Source: a virus
Lineage: Duplodnaviria > Heunggongvirae > Uroviricota > Caudoviricetes
Length of the DNA: 46,627 nucleotides
Direction: 5' to 3' (one strand)
IMG/VR virus record: IMGVR_UViG_2541047706_000005
Coordinates: 1-46,627 of that record
The notes beneath the pieces were generated by a model, which was given only the letters and a program-made list of their open reading frames with translations, was not told where the DNA came from and did not search any database. The position numbers were made by a program, and so were the translations under genes. Numbering within the stretch: position 1 is the stretch's first letter; each line of letters starts with the position of its first letter. Positions 1-32,739 of the stretch are shown here, one piece after another.

Positions 1-1284
1 TTACTTCTTCGCCTCTGCAACCACTTTACTACCCACGCCGCGGTTATTGTATTCCCACATGCGGTTGTAGTTAGTGTCATTCAGATTGCGCTGTATTTCG
101 TCGTTATCATCTACGCTGCCGGTATTACCCGCAAACGGACGATTAGAGATCACCGCATCGGCCCACGGTTTAGCCGTGTTAAAACCTTCGTTGATGGCGC
201 TATCACGGATCACCACCTGACCGTTGGTATTGGCATCAACATCCAGCGAGCGGCCCAGTTGCGCCACACCATCACCGAAAGCATTGAAACGGCTGTTTAC
301 GGCGAGGAAACCGTAGTAAATGTTGGACAGCGTAGCCGGTGCAAACACATACGCTTCTTGCTGAGTACGTGAGTTCACCACGCGGAATTCGGTGTTATCG
401 AACACCACTGCGCCGCGACCAGAAACGATATCCACATCCCCTTCAATGTAGCTGTTGGTCACCAGCGTACGCGGCTGACGATTCGTTTCCAGACGGTTCT
501 GCACACCGCTGTTGGTGACAAAGAAGGTGTTCTGACGACCGAGAATGTTAACGTTGTTAATCTGTACCTGGTCACCATCAGTACGCAGTGCCACCGCCGG
601 ATGGTTACCTGCATCTACGCTATCGCCCAGCGTGTTTTCGATGGTCAGATTTTGCAGTTGCAGGCCATTGTTTTGTGACCAGAAGACCGCAGAGCAGAGA
701 ACACCGATACTGTCGCTGCGTTTGCTCTGGCAGCTATCGTACATATACCACGCTGGTTTACCTGGCATATATTTGCCGCGCGGGTTGACGTCGTGACGCC
801 AGTCGGCAGGGCTCATGCCACCATCAAGGGAAAGCCCAATCTTCACATCAATCGGTTTTTCACCTGTACCGTACAGAGTAATTCCACCCGGAGCGGCAGG
901 GACATATACCGTTCCCTGATACTCACCAGGCATCACGGCAATATACTGGCGCTTGTTGGTACGCTTGATAATTGCCGCATCTACCGCCGCCTGAATCGTG
1001 GTATGCGTTACACCTTGAGTGCCCGCCGGGCCGACAACAAAGTCAGGTTGCGCAGGCAGGGTAATCGGGGAAGGATTCCACGCTGCTGCACCTGGTGTCA
1101 GGGATGCAAAATAGTGTTGAGCATCGAAATTCTGCGCTTCTTTTGCCGACAGAATCGGGCGAGAAGAGGTACCAGGCGCGGTTTGATCAGAAGGACGTTG
1201 ATCGGGCGGGGTTGAGCTACAGGCGGTCAGCGTCACGCCAAAAGCCAATGCCAGCGCCAGACGGGAAACTGAAAATGTGTTCAC
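1..1284 (-). CDS. ybhC: Host pectinesterase-family outer-membrane lipoprotein (YbhC-like), flanking the prophage
   Basis: 427-aa ORF with signal peptide and lipobox (LTAC); recognised as YbhC-like from memory; sits immediately outside the att core. Confidence 0.75.
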   Translation of the reverse strand: MNTFSVSRLALALAFGVTLTACSSTPPDQRPSDQTAPGTSSRPILSAKEAQNFDAQHYFASLTPGAAAWNPSPITLPAQPDFVVGPAGTQGVTHTTIQAAVDAAIIKRTNKRQYIAVMPGEYQGTVYVPAAPGGITLYGTGEKPIDVKIGLSLDGGMSPADWRHDVNPRGKYMPGKPAWYMYDSCQSKRSDSIGVLCSAVFWSQNNGLQLQNLTIENTLGDSVDAGNHPAVALRTDGDQVQINNVNILGRQNTFFVTNSGVQNRLETNRQPRTLVTNSYIEGDVDIVSGRGAVVFDNTEFRVVNSRTQQEAYVFAPATLSNIYYGFLAVNSRFNAFGDGVAQLGRSLDVDANTNGQVVIRDSAINEGFNTAKPWADAVISNRPFAGNTGSVDDNDEIQRNLNDTNYNRMWEYNNRGVGSKVVAEAKK

Positions 1285-1418: not shown

Positions 1419-2489
1419 TTATTTGATTTCAATTTTGTCCCACTCCCTGCCTCTGTCATCACGATACTGTGATGCCATGGTGTCCGACTTATGCCCGAGA
1501 AGATGTTGAGCAAACTTATCGCTTATCTGCTTCTCATAGAGTCTTGCAGACAAACTGCGCAACTCGTGAAAGGTAGGCGGATCCCCTTCGAAGGAAAGAC
1601 CTGATGCTTTTCGTGCGCGCATAAAATACCTTGATACTGTGCCGGATGAAAGCGGTTCACGACGAGTAGATGCAATTATGGTTTCTCCGCCAAGAATCTT
1701 TTTGCATTTATCAAGTGTTTCCTTCATTGATATCCCGAGAGCATCAACATGCAATGCTGTTGGGATGGCAATTTTTACGCCTGTTTTGCTTTGCTCGACA
1801 TAAAGATATCCATCTACGATATCAGACCACTTCATTTCGCATAAATCACCAACTCGCTGCCCGGTAACAACAGCCAGTTCCATTGCAAGTCTTAGCCAAC
1901 ATGGTGATGATTCTGCTGCTTGATAAATTTTTAGGTATTCGTCAGCTGTAAGTCTTGATCTCCTTACCTCTGATTTTGCTGCGCGAGTGGCAGCGACCGG
2001 GTTTGTTGTTATATGGCCTTCAGCTATTGCCTCTCGGAATGCATCGCTCAGTGTTGATCTGATTAACTTGGCTGACGCCGCCTTGCCCTCGTCTATGTAT
2101 CCATTGAGCATTGCCGCAATTTCTTTTGTGGTGATGTCTTCAAGTGGAGCATCAGGCAGACCCCTCCTTATTGCTTTAATTTTGCTCATGTAATTTATGA
2201 GTGTCTTCTGCTTGATTCCTCTGCTGGCGAGGATTTTTTCGTAGCGATCAAGCCATGAATGTAACGTAACAGAATTATCACTGTTGATTCTCGCTGTCAG
2301 AGGCTTGTGTTTGTGTCCTGAAAATAACTCAATGTTGGCCTGTATAGCTTCAGTGATTGCGATTCGCCTGTCTCGGCCTAATCCGAACTCTTTACCCGTC
2401 CTTGGGTCCCTGTAGCAGTAATATCCATTGTTTCTTATATAAAGGTTAGGGGGTAAATCCCGGCGCTCATGACTTCGCCTTCTTCCCAT
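1419..2489 (-). CDS. int: Lambda integrase (tyrosine recombinase)
   Basis: 356-aa translation recognised as lambda Int (MGRRRSHERRDLPPNLYIRNNGYY...); overlaps xis as in lambda. Confidence 0.97.
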   Translation of the reverse strand: MGRRRSHERRDLPPNLYIRNNGYYCYRDPRTGKEFGLGRDRRIAITEAIQANIELFSGHKHKPLTARINSDNSVTLHSWLDRYEKILASRGIKQKTLINYMSKIKAIRRGLPDAPLEDITTKEIAAMLNGYIDEGKAASAKLIRSTLSDAFREAIAEGHITTNPVAATRAAKSEVRRSRLTADEYLKIYQAAESSPCWLRLAMELAVVTGQRVGDLCEMKWSDIVDGYLYVEQSKTGVKIAIPTALHVDALGISMKETLDKCKKILGGETIIASTRREPLSSGTVSRYFMRARKASGLSFEGDPPTFHELRSLSARLYEKQISDKFAQHLLGHKSDTMASQYRDDRGREWDKIEIK

Positions 2490-4758: not shown

Positions 4759-4988
4759 TGGTTGCCTCCTTTGCGTAACTGGGCGGCGCTTCTGATCTTT
4801 CCACTCTTGACCCCAGCGAAAGCCTTTAGCCAAAGCTTACGGTTGAGTGGATCATCTGTTGAATACGGATTGTCAGTTACCTCGAGGCCTATTACGGCGG
4901 CGTAGATTCCCTCCTCGTAAGCGTTGTCGACGTCTCTGGCATTACCATCTGCATCAATTCTTCTGGCAGGCTTAATCTGATTGCTCAT
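4755..4988 (-). CDS. Hypothetical protein (77 aa)
   Basis: ORF track; tightly packed in the leftward operon. Confidence 0.45.
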   Translation of the reverse strand: MSNQIKPARRIDADGNARDVDNAYEEGIYAAVIGLEVTDNPYSTDDPLNRKLWLKAFAGVKSGKIRSAAQLRKGGNQ

Positions 4989-5443
4989 GCTGCACCTCCT
5001 TCGCGAAGCTGAGTGGCGAATTCATTAAGCTCAGCTAACAATTCATCAGCCCACTGAGCCGCTCTGCTTGCGTAGAGCATCTCCACACCCTGCGCCCGGA
5101 CTTCAGCCAGGAAAGCATCGGTGGCTGGGGTGTCTGATTGCAGAGACTTTGCGCGATAGTCATTCCACCCTCTTGCATACATGGGATTAACTTGCACTCC
5201 ATCTTTTACGCAATATGCCTGACCTCCACGGTTGATAACCTTGATTTCGTCCATAGCGCCAGACTTCAGCCCCGCATTCTCCGCCGCCAGCGCCGCGCAC
5301 TTGGCCTCCGCTTCAGCAAATTTACGCACCAGATATTCAGCGTTTGTTTCGTTAACCTTTAAATCACTTGGAATGCATTTACCTTTCAGAAATCCATCCA
5401 TCTCAATTAGTGACATTTGTTTCATTTTTTCCCACTCCGCCAC
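4985..5443 (-). CDS. Hypothetical protein (152 aa)
   Basis: ORF track; stop/start coupled with neighbours. Confidence 0.5.
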
Positions 5444-7006: not shown

Positions 7007-7195
7007 TTATGTCGATACCAGAGAGCTTTCTGCGTGTACATGCGCCTCTGTAACTTGCTCTCCTTCACTGTGGTTGCAAGTGACATGAATATCTCCTTCG
7101 TTACCGATTAATTCTTTCATCTGACGAATGAATTCTTCGTCTGACCAGTTATCTGTAAAACTCATGGACGGCCTTGTTGTTTCAAAATATCCCAA
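7007..7195 (-). CDS. Small hypothetical protein (kil/gam position)
   Basis: ORF track; start uncertain. Confidence 0.35.
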   Translation of the reverse strand: MGYFETTRPSMSFTDNWSDEEFIRQMKELIGNEGDIHVTCNHSEGEQVTEAHVHAESSLVST

Positions 7196-15649: not shown

Positions 15650-15768
15650 TGACGCGATGATTTATCCGGGGCTATATTCCCAGCACGCCAGCAAAATCTG
15701 GCGTCGGGATTGGCGTCCCGGATAGAGACCGCGACAGACACACGCCGCGAGCGTGTTTTTTTATTGTC
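15650..15768 (+). ncRNA. Candidate small structured RNA (promoter-like element, three hairpins, terminator)
   Basis: TTGACG-17-CTATAT, then stems acgccag/ctggcgt and cggga/tcccg, ending in acacgc-cgcga-gcgtgt plus T7; no ORF. Confidence 0.3.
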
Positions 15769-15923
15769 GAATGCACGCGCACATCTGAATTATGGTGGGC
15801 TGTGTGGGGGCGGAGAGATCCGCGCCGGTCGGTTTCCCGGTTACGCCAACCCTGCACAGTTCACCACCAGACGATTGGCGTCGTCGGTGGTGAGTTATTT
15901 AGAAACCACTCGAGGGCGTCATT

Positions 15924-16604
15924 ATGACAACTCAAATCTCTGTTGAAACTCTCTCCCCGATCACCCATAACCAGATTCCTGTTATCACCACCGAACTTTT
16001 GGCGCAGCTTTATGACACAGAAATTCTGAATATCCAGGTTAACTTCACCAGAAATAAAGAGCGTTTTGTCGAAGGAAAGCACTTTTTTAAAGCAGTGGGT
16101 GAAGAATTAAAAAATTTGCGACTTACTTTAAGTAAGTCACAAAATCCCATCTCTCCCAAAACCCGCTCCCTCATCCTCTGGACAGAACGCGGCGCAGCCC
16201 GTCACGCCAAAATGCTCGAAACCGATCAGGCGTGGGATGTGTTCGAAAAACTGGAAGACTGCTATTTCAGCCAGTGCGAGAAAAATACTGGCAAACAAGA
16301 GAAGAAGCTCAACGGGCTTTCCGCAAAAGAAACAGACAGCCTTGTATGGCTATGGGATTATGCCAACCGCTCACAGGCATTATTCCGCGAACTGTATCCG
16401 GCGCTAAAACAAATTCAATCGAACTATTCCGGCAGATGCTACGACTACGGTCATGAGTTCTCGTATGTTATTGGAATGGCGAGAGACGTTTTAATCAATC
16501 ACACACGAGATGTTGATATTAATGAGCCAGACGGACCAACGAATCTTTCCGCATGGGTAAGGCTTAAGAACAAAGAATTACCTCCTTCACTGCATCGCTA
16601 CTGA
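15924..16604 (+). CDS. ORF6N-domain protein (antirepressor/Roi-like)
   Basis: N-terminal [38 protein letters not shown] resembles the ORF6N domain as remembered. Confidence 0.6.
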
Positions 16605-18286: not shown

Positions 18287-18935
18287 TGGCAGCAAATACC
18301 GAAATATTTGGGTAGTTGGCGATCTGCACGGATGCTACACGAACCTGATGAACAAACTGGATACGATTGGATTCGACAACAAAAAAGACCTGCTTATCTC
18401 GGTGGGCGATTTGGTCGATCGCGGTACAGAGAACGTCGAATGCCTGGAATTAATCACATTCCCCTGGTTCAGAGCTGTACGTGGAAACCATGAACACATG
18501 ATGATTGATGGCTTATCAGAGCGTGGAAACGTCAATCACTGGCTGCTTAATGGCGGTGGCTGGTTCTTTAATCTCGATTACGACAAAGAAATTCTGGCTA
18601 AAGCTCTTGCCCATAAAGCAGAAGAACTTCCGTTAATCATCGAACTGGTGAGCAAAGGTAAAAAATATGTCATTTGCCACGCCGATTATCCTTGTGATGA
18701 ATACGAGTTTGGAAAGCCAGTTGATCATCAGCAGGTAATCTGGAACCGCGAACGAATCGGCAACTCACAAAACGGGATCGTGAAAGAAATTAAAGGCGCG
18801 GACACGTTCATCTTTGGTCATACGCCAGCAGTGAAACCACTCAAATTTGCCAACCAGATGTATATCGATACCGGCGCAGTGTTCTGCGGAAACCTCACAT
18901 TGATTCAGGTACAGGGAGAAGGCGCGTGGGCATAA
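18264..18935 (+). CDS. ninI: Lambda-type Ser/Thr protein phosphatase (NinI)
   Basis: GDLHG, GDLVDRG and GNHE metallophosphatase motifs; matches lambda phosphatase as remembered. Confidence 0.9.
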
Positions 18936-19444
18936 GAGAACTAAACCTCACCAAAGAACAGCATGAGTGGCTGAATGGCTGGCTTGAACTGTGGGGCGCA
19001 TGGGTTTATTCAGGTCGTCTGGAAAAGCGCATGAGCAGCGTAATAGCGAAGTTCATGGAGAGCGTAGAGCCGGGAAGAGTTATGACAAGGCCAATGTGTA
19101 ATGATGATGATGGAATGTTGATTTCTCAGGTCGTCGATTCCGTCATGTATATTGACAAGAAAGCCTTTGGCATCCTCCTAAGCTACTACGCTCATGGTTC
19201 ATCTAAGCGAGCAATTGCATCCTACTATCACGCGACTGCAAAGCCACGCAAGATGTGTGGACGTGGTGGCGAGGGATGGAGAAAACCTTCACTGGCAACC
19301 TGTAGAAACGAAATTGACGACATCCTGAAAGCGTCATTATTTGTTTTATACCAGCCAATGCAAAATGCTTTTAAAATGCGTAAACGTGTTGAGAAAGTTA
19401 AGCATGTTGCTGTTAAAAGCCTTGACATGCAATTATCCATTTAG
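18926..19444 (+). CDS. Late-gene antiterminator Q (Q82/Q21 type, not lambda Q)
   Basis: WLELWGAW N-terminal motif typical of the Q82/Q21 family; position just before pR'. Confidence 0.65.
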
Positions 19445-19451
19445 CCATAAT
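19422..19451 (+). promoter_or_regulatory. Candidate late promoter pR'
   Basis: TTGACA then 18 bp then CATAAT at the 3' end of the Q gene. Confidence 0.4.
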
Positions 19452-19507
19452 TAGAAGGTAAGCTGCCGTTAGTGACTCTTAAGTTGCAACGGTGGCTTTT
19501 TTTATTT

Positions 19508-19582
19508 GGGTCAGTCGTATAAAGGTCATTACGGAAGGCTGTTAACCTTCTTATCGTGGTTCGAGTCCACGCTGTCCCGCCA
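19508..19582 (+). tRNA. tRNA-like gene, anticodon GTT (Asn) by hand folding; non-canonical acceptor/D-arm
   Basis: T-arm cgtgg-ttcgagt-ccacg, anticodon stem gaagg/ccttc with loop ctGTTaa, 3' gcca; one acceptor mismatch. Confidence 0.5.
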
Positions 19583-19587
19583 AACAT

Positions 19588-19663
19588 GCTGTTTTAGCTC
19601 CAATGGTAGAGCGGTCGCCTTGTAAGCGAATGGGTAGCGGTTCAAGTCCGTTAAACAGCACCA
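19588..19663 (+). tRNA. tRNA-like gene, anticodon TGT (Thr) by hand folding
   Basis: Acceptor gctgttt/aaacagc, D-arm gctc-caatggta-gagc, loop ctTGTaa, T-arm agcgg-ttcaagt-ccgtt, 3' ACCA. Confidence 0.6.
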
Positions 19664-19750
19664 TAACTGAGCCGTAGCCACTGGCTATCCTGAATTCATC
19701 AGTGATAGTTACGCTGCGGCCTTCTACACATGACCTTCGTGAAAGCGGGT

Positions 19751-19786
19751 GGCAAGAGGTTGCGCTAACAACCTCCTGCCGTTTTG
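19751..19786 (+). terminator. Strong rho-independent terminator (tR'-like) before the lysis genes
   Basis: 12-bp stem ggcaagaggttg/caacctcctgcc with 5-nt loop followed by gtttt. Confidence 0.6.
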
Positions 19787-19834
19787 CCCTTATTCCTAAT
19801 TAAATAGAGCAAATCCCCTTATTGGGGCTAAGAC

Positions 19835-20158
19835 ATGAAGATGCCAGAAAAACATGACCTGTTAGCCGCCATTCTCGCGGCAAAGGAACAAGGCATCGGG
19901 GCAATCCTTGCGTTTGCAATGGCGTACCTTCGCGGCAGATATAATGGCGGTGCGTTTACAAAAACAGTAATCGACGCAACGATGTGCGCCATTATCGCCT
20001 GGTTCATTCGTGACCTTCTCGACTTCGCCGGACTAAGTAGCAACCTCGCTTATATAACGAGCGTGTTCATCGGCTACATCGGTACTGACTCGATTGGTTC
20101 GCTTATCAAACGCTTCGCTGCTAAAAAAGCCGGAATAGAAGATGGTGGAAATCAATAA
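19835..20158 (+). CDS. S: Lambda S holin
   Basis: 107-aa [39 protein letters not shown]... recognised as lambda S (dual-start MKM). Confidence 0.97.
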
Positions 20159-27101: not shown

Positions 27102-27962
27102 ATGGCTAATTTATCTCTTAACCCGATGGCGACCACGAATGCCGCTGGTTCCTTCGGTGTGCAGTCTGATGGCTTCATTCAGGGCGTTGCTCTGGATGAT
27201 CCGGCAAATCGCTTTAACCTGGCGTCCGGCACTGTCGCCGCCACCGAAACCAAACCGCTGTGGGGTGGCCTGCCGGTTGCCGAGTTGCTTCCCGGCGTTA
27301 ACTCCAGTCCTCGCGGGTCGACTATTCGTCGCGCTGCGTCACTGGCTGAGCTCGAAGGCTTCACCGTCTTCAACCAGGCTCACAACGGGCTTACTACTCC
27401 GCAATCACCGGTTCCGCTGTATGCGTCCGGCATGAGCGTTTCATTCTATCGCCTTGGCTCCAACATGCGCGTGCCGCTGAAAGCGTCAGCGCAGGTGGTC
27501 GCGCTGGGAACCGCTGGCGCATCGGTGAAAACGCCGCTGGCGTGGGACTTCGTCAATAACCAGGTGACCACCGCAGCGGCGGCGGCTTTTGCCGGTGCTA
27601 ACATTGCCACCACTGCCGTGACTTACTCGAACGGCGTGGCTACCGCCACCACCGCATCCGCACATGGGCTGACTGCTGGCCAGTACGTGAAGATCAGCGG
27701 CGTAGATCCGGCTGCCTATAACGGCACCGTCGTTGTGCTGAGCGTACCGAGTACGACAACCTTCACCTATGCGCCTGCCAGCGCGCCGGGCGGCTCCGCG
27801 ACCACGCAGGGCACTATCGGCGCTGTGGCTCAGGCAGACATCACCCTGCCGGTGAAAGTCATCTCCATCGAGAGTGGGAACTCTAAAACTGTCAGCTATG
27901 ACAGCGCTACGGGCTTCCTTACCTGGAACAACACCGACAGCTGCGCGCTGGTCTTACTTTAA
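27102..27962 (+). CDS. Head structural protein with Ig-like module (decoration or capsid-associated)
   Basis: Between scaffold and capsid genes; contains AHGLTAGQYVKISGVDPAAYNG...FTY module. Confidence 0.5.
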   Translation: MANLSLNPMATTNAAGSFGVQSDGFIQGVALDDPANRFNLASGTVAATETKPLWGGLPVAELLPGVNSSPRGSTIRRAASLAELEGFTVFNQAHNGLTTPQSPVPLYASGMSVSFYRLGSNMRVPLKASAQVVALGTAGASVKTPLAWDFVNNQVTTAAAAAFAGANIATTAVTYSNGVATATTASAHGLTAGQYVKISGVDPAAYNGTVVVLSVPSTTTFTYAPASAPGGSATTQGTIGAVAQADITLPVKVISIESGNSKTVSYDSATGFLTWNNTDSCALVLL

Positions 27963-31344: not shown

Positions 31345-32739
31345 ATGGCAATTGTTAATATTAACGTGTCGGTGACGAATCCGCCGAAGCCCTCGCAGTT
31401 GTTAAAGTCCGGGGCGATGATTTCTATGGGCGGCACGACGCTGAATGCCGGTGAATATCAGCTGCTGACCAGTGAAACCGACCTGGCCGACATTCTCGCA
31501 CCGGCGAAAACCATCTCGACGCTCGCCTGGGCTACTGGCGTGGTAACGGTCACGCTGGCTGCCGCTCACGGATGGACTAACGGTTCACAGGTCCCGGTGA
31601 TCATCTCCGGCGCGACTCCGGCGGGGTACAATGGCGCCTATACCGCTACGGTGACAGGTACCAACACCTTCACCTATCCGCTGACGGCCAACCCCGGCAG
31701 CGCAACGGCAATGGGTACGGTAAAAACGGTAGTACAGACCGAAATTTCCCAGATGAATACCTCGTTCTGGGCCCAGGGGAAAACGCGGGCAGTTTATGTG
31801 CTGGAACTGGGCGATGTGTCCATGGAGGCAGCTGTCGCAGCGCTGACAACCTTCATTGCTGAAGACGTCTCCCTGGGTAACACCTACCAGAAGTTTTTCT
31901 CCTATCTGGTGCCGCGCGAATGGGATTCGGTCGATGAATTTAAAACCCTGACTAGCCTCTATACTTCGCCGGGAAGTCTGGTTTACTTCTTTGTCACCAC
32001 AACGATCGCGACCTATGAAGCGTGGACAGCGACGAAAAACAAAACTGTCTTTGCTGGCGTCGAGGCTCCGGATATTCCGGCTAGCGAGTTTTCCATGGCC
32101 GGCCCGTTCCAGTCATCCCTGGCAAACGACCCGGGGTCGAGCAACATGGTGCCGCCGATGTCGTACCGCTTTATGTACGGCCTGACTGAGTATCCGCTGG
32201 AAGGCAACAGCGCACTGCTGAAATCGCTTCAGGACAGCAACATCAACTACATCGGTACCGGCGCCGAAGGTGGTCTCAGTAACAAAGTGCTGTTCACCGG
32301 CCGCATGCTCGACGGTAACCCGTTCAACTACTGGTATTCGGTGGCGTGGACGGCGATCAACCTTGAGCTCGACCTGGCGAATGAAATCATCAACGGCTCC
32401 AACACGACCGTTAACCCGCTGTACTACGAGCAGAAGGGCATTGACCGCCTACAGCGTCGCGCTCTGAAAACCTTGCGTAATGGCATCAGCTACGGGCTGA
32501 TCCTCGGTCGCGTCATTGACACGCAACTGACGCAGGAAGATTTCAACACCGAGTATGACAAAGGCACTTACGCCGGCAACGCCGTGATCAACGCCGTTCC
32601 GTTCAGTAACTACAACAGCCTGAACCCCTCCGATTATCAGGAAGGAAAATACAACGGGCTGAGCGCAGTCATGACGCCGCGCCGCGGCTTCGAATCCATC
32701 ACGTTTAACGTGAACGTAACGAACTTTGTAGGGGCGTAA
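31345..32739 (+). CDS. Tail sheath protein (putative) with Ig-like module
   Basis: 464 aa immediately upstream of a 145-aa tube-sized gene; contains AHGWTNGSQVPVIISGATPAGYNG...FTY module. Confidence 0.6.
   Translation: MAIVNINVSVTNPPKPSQLLKSGAMISMGGTTLNAGEYQLLTSETDLADILAPAKTISTLAWATGVVTVTLAAAHGWTNGSQVPVIISGATPAGYNGAYTATVTGTNTFTYPLTANPGSATAMGTVKTVVQTEISQMNTSFWAQGKTRAVYVLELGDVSMEAAVAALTTFIAEDVSLGNTYQKFFSYLVPREWDSVDEFKTLTSLYTSPGSLVYFFVTTTIATYEAWTATKNKTVFAGVEAPDIPASEFSMAGPFQSSLANDPGSSNMVPPMSYRFMYGLTEYPLEGNSALLKSLQDSNINYIGTGAEGGLSNKVLFTGRMLDGNPFNYWYSVAWTAINLELDLANEIINGSNTTVNPLYYEQKGIDRLQRRALKTLRNGISYGLILGRVIDTQLTQEDFNTEYDKGTYAGNAVINAVPFSNYNSLNPSDYQEGKYNGLSAVMTPRRGFESITFNVNVTNFVGA

Follow-up and report, generated by a model that had tools for sequence, protein, structure and literature searches.

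The transfer RNA (tRNA) genes considered here are located in the IMG/VR record IMGVR_UViG_2541047706_000005, a virus of the class Caudoviricetes, and the term "window" refers to the whole stretch of DNA that was analyzed, with its 46,627 nucleotides (nt). Exactly two tRNA genes are found by ARAGORN in this 46.6-kb window, both on the plus strand, and both lie in the leader of the late operon, between the late antiterminator gene Q, with its promoter pR', and the genes responsible for lysis. The first gene encodes a tRNA-Asn(GUU) and the second a tRNA-Thr(UGU), and the window holds a lambdoid prophage of E. coli. The elements of the late leader, all on the plus strand, are as follows.

18926-19444, plus strand: late antiterminator Q of the phage 21 / Sf6 type, 172 aa (PHROG 943, 'anti-termination protein Q-like', E = 2.6e-93)
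19422-19451, plus strand: late promoter pR' (promoter scan, 11/12 consensus matches; homologous to the annotated Sf6 pR')
19460-19507, plus strand: tR', the intrinsic terminator of the late leader (hairpin at 19460-19498, then U7-A-UUU)
19508-19582, plus strand: tRNA-Asn(GUU), 75 nt, with an encoded CCA and the discriminator G73 (ARAGORN, Rfam)
19583-19587, plus strand: spacer AACAT, 5 nt, between the two tRNAs (read from the sequence; conserved in relatives)
19588-19663, plus strand: tRNA-Thr(UGU), 76 nt, with an encoded CCA, G1-C72 and C2-G71 (ARAGORN, Rfam)
19671-19719, plus strand: conserved stem-loop 3' of the tRNAs (-27.7 kcal/mol, z = -4.1), found almost base for base in the lambda late leader
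19751-19789, plus strand: lambda-type hairpin with a GUUUUG tail, upstream of S (-22.3 kcal/mol, z = -2.9), near-identical in lambda
19835-20158, plus strand: holin/antiholin S of the lambda S107/S105 type, the first lysis gene (list of open reading frames (ORFs); Sf6 and HK446 annotations of the homolog)

Anatomy of the tRNA Genes

Both genes are recovered by the Rfam tRNA model RF00005, with 55.3 bits (E = 2.5e-9) for the tRNA-Asn and 61.2 bits (E = 6.1e-11) for the tRNA-Thr, against a gathering score of 29, and a permissive Rfam scan of the interval 19380-19900 returned no RNA family beyond these two tRNAs. A first-pass annotation of the window, based on hand folding, had placed two tRNA-like genes with the anticodons UGU and GUU between Q/pR' and the lysis cassette, and ARAGORN and Rfam agree with it on both the genes and the anticodons, with no different anticodon being assigned to either. 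The span of 19445-19830 that it proposed does contain both genes, but these fill only 19508-19663, and their order is Asn followed by Thr, rather than the reverse.

The two sequences have the structure of canonical elongator tRNAs, that is, a cloverleaf with a seven-base-pair acceptor stem and the D, anticodon, and T arms, with a score above the threshold. The conserved nucleotides U8, A14, G18-G19, A21, and U33, the purine at position 37, and the T-loop UUCRA are complete in both, with A37, the T-loop UUCGA, and a C at position 9 in the tRNA-Asn. The identity elements of asparaginyl-tRNA synthetase (G34, U35, U36, and G73) are present in the tRNA-Asn, as are those of threonyl-tRNA synthetase (G1-C72, C2-G71, G35, and U36) in the tRNA-Thr. 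The anticodon arms read GAAGG-CUGUUAA-CCUUC in the tRNA-Asn and GUCGC-CUUGUAA-GCGAA in the tRNA-Thr. The tRNA-Asn has a variable loop of 4 nt and an A/U-rich D stem with a single G-C pair, and the Rfam alignment reveals two non-standard pairs, a U.U at 4:69 of the acceptor stem and another at 13:22 of the D stem, which bears out the acceptor-stem mismatch and the atypical D-arm that had been noticed in the hand fold. The tRNA-Thr had been described as a good cloverleaf, which its call and its score confirm, although the G27.A43 mismatch at the base of the anticodon stem, flagged by Rfam and seen in the comparison of the anticodon arms, had gone unmentioned.

The Status of the tRNA-Asn

The two U.U mismatches and the A/U-rich D stem, with its one G-C pair, are the type of feature that would be expected if the tRNA-Asn were a decayed pseudo-tRNA, or served as a decoy or processing element without decoding, acting as punctuation for RNase P, for example, or as a competitive binder of nucleases. 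Its unvarying place at the start of the cassette, immediately adjacent to tR', is also compatible with this, as is its unexceptional thermodynamic fold, given that the bare sequence has a z of -1.7. The corresponding value for the tRNA-Thr is -1.1, and its minimum free energy structure is not a cloverleaf. As folding z-scores are uninformative for tRNAs, covariation was used instead.

The tRNA-Asn groups with other phage-borne tRNA-Asn genes in a clade that shares its A/U-rich D arm, with members in the Klebsiella phage Mulock, a T4-like Morganella phage, an Erwinia jumbo phage, and a Klebsiella myophage. When five members of this clade are placed on the standard cloverleaf, 94.3% of the cells are paired and 10 of the 21 pairs have changed on both sides. 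On none of the five measures is this matched by any of 500 shuffles, and the pairing falls to 34-45% when the 3' partners are slid. The only unpaired cells are at the sites 4:69 and 13:22. The U13.U22 is ancestral to the clade, with one member having C13-G22, whereas the U4.U69 is derived in the lambdoid subclade, where it is kept in approximately 95% of the copies, the relatives having U.G or C-G. The window and Mulock genes are separated by three compensatory pair swaps (6:67, 7:66, and 28:42), through which the U4.U69 has persisted, and the lambdoid tRNA-Asn is near-invariant over more than 100 contigs. The pseudo-tRNA or decoy that the first-pass annotation had considered is contradicted by this covariation and near-invariance, together with the 55.3 bits against the tRNA model and the intact tertiary and identity nucleotides, including G73 and the CCA. 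A decoy mode was also rejected for phage tRNA-Thr in published tests, which found replacement, rather than competition (PMC12445682; bioRxiv 10.64898/2026.07.10.737580). The evidence from these alignments says that the tRNA-Asn is behaving as a selected tRNA, not a pseudogene, and a degenerate or non-decoding element appears highly improbable.

Expression from the Late Leader

The Q protein shares 99% identity with Sf6 gp59 and 86% with the Q of phage 21. The promoter has a -35 element TTGACA (19422-19427), an 18-nt spacer, and a -10 element CATAAT (19446-19451), and its counterpart is annotated as the late promoter in the Sf6 record. The equivalent of the Q-binding element is predicted at 19431-19446, with a start of transcription at approximately 19458, both transferred from the annotation of phage 21. 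The placement of the tRNAs 3' of pR' thus stands, given the 11/12-match promoter and its annotation in Sf6, and these data, together with the identities of Q, point to late, Q-controlled transcription as the expected mode of expression, as had been proposed.

The hairpin of tR' has a folding energy of -20.2 kcal/mol (z = -5.42), a value that none of 200 shuffles equal, and it is near-identical in phage 21, Sf6, BTP1, and others, with a single variable T in the U-tract. This element is an annotated terminator in Sf6 and phage 21, and it ends one base before the tRNA-Asn, abutting its 5' end. A strong terminator had been proposed on the 3' side of the tRNAs, but the strong terminator, tR', precedes them, and only the weaker hairpin with the GUUUUG tail follows. 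This hairpin (19751-19789), at which the terminator scan made no call, is probably the "strong terminator" that had been intended. Given the position of tR' on the 5' side of the tRNAs, their expression would depend on either Q or the read-through of the terminator. The RNA-seq of a BTP1 lysogen counts the two tRNA genes as highly expressed features, which is evidence of expression and hints at the accumulation of the tRNAs by read-through, although spontaneous induction could also explain this high expression.

The homology with lambda begins approximately 2 nt past the CCA of the tRNA-Thr, at about position 19665. At 19789-19791 of the window, a 71-bp segment that is found in lambda between the lambda-type hairpin and the ribosome-binding site of S is absent. 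A tRNA remnant was also sought in lambda, where only an offset 8-mer, AACAGCAC, resembles the 3' end of a tRNA, and this candidate was rejected as too weak.

Distribution and Mobility of the Cassette

The tRNA pair is already known, having been described in Sf6 in 2003, in the phage 21 record, and in RefSeq. The Sf6 and phage 21 records annotate the same succession of pR', Q-binding or qut site, tR', tRNA-Asn, tRNA-Thr, and lysis genes, and the phage 21 pair (OL657228, 39591-39746) occupies the same slot, directly 3' of tR' and 5' of the lysis genes. The window pair is 98.1% identical to it over 156 nt, with the same spacer and the same tR' hairpin. The window, phage 21, Sf6, BTP1, ST64T, JLK-2012, and HK446 all have the same tRNA-Asn (100% identity), and the phage 21-type pair is also carried by SPN9CC and HK446. 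The tRNA-Thr is identical to that of phage 21 at 73 of 76 positions, including the whole anticodon arm, with U5-A68 and G26 in place of G5-C68 and A26. This variant is found in six IMG/VR contigs. The change from G5-C68 to U5-A68 is a compensatory double transversion, of which no single-change intermediate is found among 127 contigs. The surroundings of the pair differ, with the promoter and Q-binding region of the window being of the Sf6/BTP1 type, unlike that of phage 21, and the lysis genes being of the lambda type (S/R/Rz), whereas phage 21 has a pinholin and a signal-arrest-release (SAR) endolysin.

A 441-bp region of the window matches 175 phage records at more than 80% identity, 173 of them at more than 90%, in phages of Escherichia, Salmonella, Shigella, and Klebsiella. 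Among 5,426 complete genomes of E. coli, the 156-nt pair occurs in 369, where RefSeq annotates it as tRNA-Asn and tRNA-Thr. An exact search with the anticodon arm of the tRNA-Asn recovered 127 copies of the cassette, which include 109 with Asn-Thr, nine with an additional Gly(UCC), and seven with Asn alone. No tRNA-Lys was found, either by ARAGORN in the window or in any of the 127 copies.

The cassette is found behind three types of Q/pR', that is, the phage 21 type, the Sf6/BTP1/window type, and the lambda type (in HK446), and the junction, ...TTTTTTATTT|GGGTCAG, is identical behind all three. The occurrence of a single junction with three types of Q/pR' suggests that the cassette may be a mobile module, with its left boundary at the T-tract of the terminator.

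In HK446 (JQ086372, 35097-35252), ARAGORN finds both Asn and Thr, the GenBank record has no tRNA annotation, and HK446 is said to encode a single tRNA in the preprint bioRxiv 10.64898/2026.07.10.737580. An identical 156-nt pair is located at 1929-2084 of NZ_CP141750.1, a 47,948-bp record that is filed as a plasmid, but which may be the circular form of a phage; the chromosome of the same strain also has a copy of the pair.

Other tRNAs are known from this slot of the late leader, under Q antitermination, although with different anticodons. The Stx phage 933W reportedly carries ileZ-argN-argO in the interval between Q and the lysis genes, and phage L/ST64T carries Asn plus Leu-like tRNAs in the same interval. 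The tRNAs of these phages are usually discussed as suppliers for rare codons. The same two anticodons also recur, in the order Asn and then Thr, in unrelated coliphages with tiny sets of tRNAs: P1 carries adjacent Asn(GUU) and Thr(UGU) genes (2425-2578 of the compared stretch), plus an Ile, and the N4-like phage VEc25 (2337-3012 of the compared stretch) carries Asn(GUU), Thr(UGU), and Pro(UGG). The tRNA-Asn genes of P1 and N4 resemble each other, unlike the lambdoid tRNA-Asn.

Codon Usage

The classical explanation of phage tRNAs is that they supplement the host pool, which in this case would mean topping up the decoding of AAC/AAU and ACA in the late genes, with no link to defense, and the first-pass annotation had appealed to the codon compensation of late genes. 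The counts from the 62 called ORFs, which cover 91% of the window, are as follows for ACA.

Late genes: ACA in 16% of the Thr codons, 12.1 per 1000 codons
Early-left genes: ACA in 33% of the Thr codons, 18.5 per 1000 codons
Early-right genes: ACA in 35% of the Thr codons, 20.7 per 1000 codons

In the probable capsid gene, ACA represents only one of 30 Thr codons, with four of 52 in the sheath gene and one of 33 in the gene at 27102-27962. This avoidance of ACA in the most expressed late genes means that the late-gene demand is a poor explanation for the tRNA-Thr(UGU), and the translation of the early genes, in which ACA is commoner, precedes the time at which a Q-dependent tRNA would be made. 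The compensation idea therefore fails for ACA, and it holds only loosely for Asn. The late genes are Asn-rich, with 53 Asn codons per 1000, of which 64% are AAC, and AAC exceeds AAU by 13 to 2 in the probable capsid gene and by 28 to 7 in the sheath gene. The phage L paper, which makes the same argument from codons, found 24 of the 25 capsid Asn codons to be AAC.

The same cassette is nevertheless carried by phages whose late genes are unrelated and whose hosts differ, including Sf6, BTP1, 21, HK446, and the window prophage, which argues against its being tuned to any one set of genes. Sf6 and BTP1 are podoviruses, annotated as Lederbergvirus, while 21 and HK446 are siphoviruses, and the tail-sheath gene of the window prophage marks a contractile tail. 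Given that E. coli has four tRNA-Asn genes, a limitation of Asn decoding is also unlikely. Supplementation of the codon pool is thus a rather improbable account of the cassette as a whole.

The tRNA-Thr and the P2 Old Nuclease

Experiments have shown the function of the Thr member for sequences that share its anticodon arm. According to Govande et al. 2025 (PMC12445682), P2 Old, the classic lambda-excluding protein, kills through the destruction of the host tRNA-Thr(UGU), with the cut following the C in the paired CNG motifs (nt 28-30 and 40-42), in substrates that share A37. Phage tRNA-Thr(UGU) genes rescue the toxicity of Old, and the tRNA-Thr of phage 21 ("Thr21") protects cells against P2-OLD and resists cleavage in vitro (PMC12445682). 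This resistance, which was mapped to the anticodon arm in Thr6, requires that the CNG motif be altered and that the anticodon stem be shortened as well (PMC12445682). In a second, independent study (bioRxiv 10.64898/2026.07.10.737580), the tRNA-Thr of HK446 strongly rescued OLD-sensitive phages, and the tRNA-Thr genes of T4 and Bas32 were also among those studied. The sequence of the HK446 tRNA-Thr is that of phage 21, and the anticodon arm of the window gene is identical to both. The determinants compare as follows.

Host thrU: CUG / CAG at nt 28-30 / 40-42, U at position 39, A-U pair at 27:43
Window tRNA-Thr: UCG / CGA at nt 28-30 / 40-42, G at position 39, G.A mismatch at 27:43

The window tRNA-Thr thus shares the UGU anticodon, the altered CNG, and the shortened stem of the OLD-resistant "rescue tRNAs" Thr6 and Thr21. 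These were expressed from plasmid promoters in the experiments, whereas the window gene would be transcribed from a Q-dependent late leader.

Homologs of proteins that set off or inhibit this defense are also encoded in the window. The Gp33 of HK75/HK446 is a trigger of OLD, and gp27 (Oad2) is an inhibitor of OLD (bioRxiv 10.64898/2026.07.10.737580). The corresponding features are:

7007-7195, minus strand: Gp33 homolog (tblastn, 86% identity to HK446 gp33)
4985-5443, minus strand: Oad2-like ORF (41% identity to HK446 gp27)

The presence of the Gp33 homolog implies that the phage carries a liability that would make a resistant tRNA-Thr useful. Other HK446 homologs in the window are Erf (99.5% identity), Gp31 (98%), and Abc2 (96%), and the Oad2-like and Gp33 ORFs flank this Erf/Gp31/Abc2 recombination locus, which is 96-99% identical to that of HK446.

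Variant cassettes also point toward counter-defense. In JLK-2012 (681-834) and nine IMG/VR contigs, the tRNA-Thr is chimeric, its 5' half being of the phage type and its 3' half resembling thrU. The only changes in the anticodon arm of this type are at nt 42-43, which leave the stem shorter and disrupt the 3' CNG. Variant cassettes also contain a glyT-like Gly(UCC) with the changes A37G and U8C. Gly(UCC) is on the list of OLD targets (bioRxiv 10.64898/2026.07.10.737580), and A37 is invariant among the OLD substrates (PMC12445682). This suggests that tRNAs of the host thrU operon may have been captured, and then changed at the OLD determinants.

The tRNA-Asn and PARIS AriB

A second nuclease, AriB of the PARIS system, targets Lys-UUU, Thr-UGU, and Asn-GUU, and the cleavage of the host tRNA-Asn(GUU) matters biologically (PMC11464382, PMC12409363). 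AriB cuts between nt 40 and 41, beside U36-A-A-U39, and in the E. coli tRNA-Lys, cleavage is abolished by U39A and lowered by a change at position 41, although distal contacts also count in recognition (PMC11464382, PMC12409363). The host tRNA-Asn is also cut by P2-OLD, and was compared with ThrU in the kinetics of this enzyme, in which ThrU was cleaved fastest (PMC12445682). The motifs of both nucleases are lacking from the phage copy. The relevant positions are:

Host asnT: CGG / CCG at nt 28-30 / 40-42, UAAUCC at nt 36-41
Window tRNA-Asn: AAG / CUU at nt 28-30 / 40-42, UAACCU at nt 36-41 (C39-C40-U41)
Window tRNA-Thr: UAAGCG at nt 36-41 (G39, G41), against UAAUCA in the host

The two anticodons of the cassette are those of the three main AriB targets minus Lys. 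The comparison with phage T5 is instructive here, given that its tRNA-Lys, -Thr, and -Asn act against PARIS AriB, and the window likewise copies AriB targets, with substitutions at positions 39 and 41. In sequence, however, the window tRNAs are not closely related to those of T5, and the tRNA-Lys(UUU), which is indispensable to T5 against the B185 PARIS (PMC11464382, PMC12409363), is lacking from the window cassette. From these substitutions, we infer a putative counter-defense role for the tRNA-Asn, which would parallel that of its partner.

Proposed Mechanism

The constitutive pR' would start transcription, with most transcripts ending at tR', whereas the Q-modified RNA polymerase, or read-through on occasion, would continue through the tRNA-Asn, the tRNA-Thr, and the lysis genes. 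The two tRNAs, with their CCA already encoded, would then be freed by RNase P and 3' trimming. The tRNA-Thr(UGU) would represent a nuclease-resistant substitute for the tRNA-ThrU of the host, the principal target through which Old, the Toprim tRNase of the P2 prophage, is lethal, and without the paired CNG motifs, and with the short stem created by G27.A43, it would keep ACA decodable once Old had been tripped. The phage's own recombination-locus proteins would be responsible for this tripping, and a Gp33 homolog is present. The tRNA-Asn(GUU) would most likely play the same role for the second target common to P2-OLD and PARIS AriB, with the supply of tRNA-Asn for the Asn-rich late proteins being a possible secondary benefit. 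Overall, it is probable that the window encodes two functional tRNAs in a late leader of the phage 21 type, of which the tRNA-Thr replaces the ThrU cut by OLD, with the tRNA-Asn likely acting in a similar manner.

A more specific proposal is that the invariant tRNA-Asn, rather than serving codon usage, is the second half of a matched two-tRNA kit against the OLD-family Toprim tRNases, which moves between phages by recombination at the U-tract of tR'. Under this proposal, P2 Old and PARIS AriB would be the weapons of P2-like prophages and P4-like satellites, the succession of Asn and then Thr would recur in P1 and the N4-like phages for the same reason, and a low level of read-through at tR' during lysogeny would supply the cell with resistant tRNAs in advance. 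It is offered here tentatively, as somewhat doubtful, and the only new element of this analysis is the prediction of a second resistant tRNA, the tRNA-Asn, in a mobile kit against Toprim tRNases.

A number of points weigh against these interpretations. In the case of the tRNA-Thr, the data on protection from OLD refer to the phage 21/HK446 gene, from which the window variant differs at 3 nt, and the protection is partial at best, given that a single phage tRNA-Thr gave neither a rescue of lambda itself nor any relief of toxicity in recB cells (bioRxiv 10.64898/2026.07.10.737580). CNG is absent from most tRNAs, so its absence alone is weak evidence, and the Thr gene of P1 retains both CNG motifs. 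The timing is also awkward, as the tRNAs are behind tR' and the trigger of OLD is early, unless there is prior read-through. In the case of the tRNA-Asn, the lack of the tRNA-Lys(UUU), the main target of AriB, means that the cassette alone could not defeat the PARIS system that has been studied. The Asn gene of P1 retains UAAUCA, the tRNA-Asn of the Klebsiella phage Mulock has both CNG motifs, and Asn does not appear on the tRNA-seq list of OLD targets in the preprint (bioRxiv 10.64898/2026.07.10.737580).

The locus provides a worked example of a "codon-usage" tRNA of a temperate phage that turns out to be a counter-defense tRNA, a label which is applied because protection against P2 Old is conferred by a tRNA-Thr that has the same anticodon arm. 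The always-present partner, the lambdoid tRNA-Asn, was overlooked by both OLD papers, neither of which discusses it (PMC12445682; bioRxiv 10.64898/2026.07.10.737580), and it may replace a second target of Old and PARIS. If so, the cassette would be a compact, mobile anti-tRNase module, and the small tRNA sets of phages could be read as fingerprints of the tRNases of their hosts.

Prophage Context

The left end of the window reveals the site of integration, in the following features.

1-1284, minus strand: host gene ybhC, at the left end of the window
1419-2489, minus strand: tyrosine integrase

This arrangement bears on a further explanation, derived from the temperate lifestyle, in which a phage tRNA replaces a host tRNA gene broken by the integration of the prophage. 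The authors of the preprint suggested this for HK446 (bioRxiv 10.64898/2026.07.10.737580). The attP at which HK446 integrates is thrW-like. The window prophage adjoins ybhC, with a left end of the lambda type, rather than a tRNA gene, and its tRNAs are approximately 17 kb from int, within the leader of the late operon. The gene ybhC borders the attachment site that is used by lambda. The anticodons are UGU and GUU, not the CGU of thrW, and even in HK446, attP is some 14 kb from the tRNA cassette of the late leader. Compensation for integration was therefore rejected for the window, given that the prophage abuts ybhC and no tRNA gene, and this explanation of the cassette is scarcely credible.

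The late structural genes (21000-42500, plus strand) are of the contractile-tail type, and are approximately 95% identical to those of vB_Kpn_Chronis, a Klebsiella phage. The early and regulatory genes resemble their HK446 and Sf6 counterparts, which, with the Chronis-like late genes, makes the prophage a cross-genus mosaic. The interval 15672-16604 (plus strand) contains isrK (77 bits), the C4 antisense RNA (67 bits), and the c4-a1b1 target elements. The individual genes are:

31345-32739, plus strand: tail sheath gene
15924-16604, plus strand: Ant-like antirepressor gene, with the isrK/C4 elements directly upstream

Taken together, the interval 15672-16604 looks like an antirepressor module of the P1/P7 type, controlled by antisense RNA, in the nin region of a lambdoid prophage.

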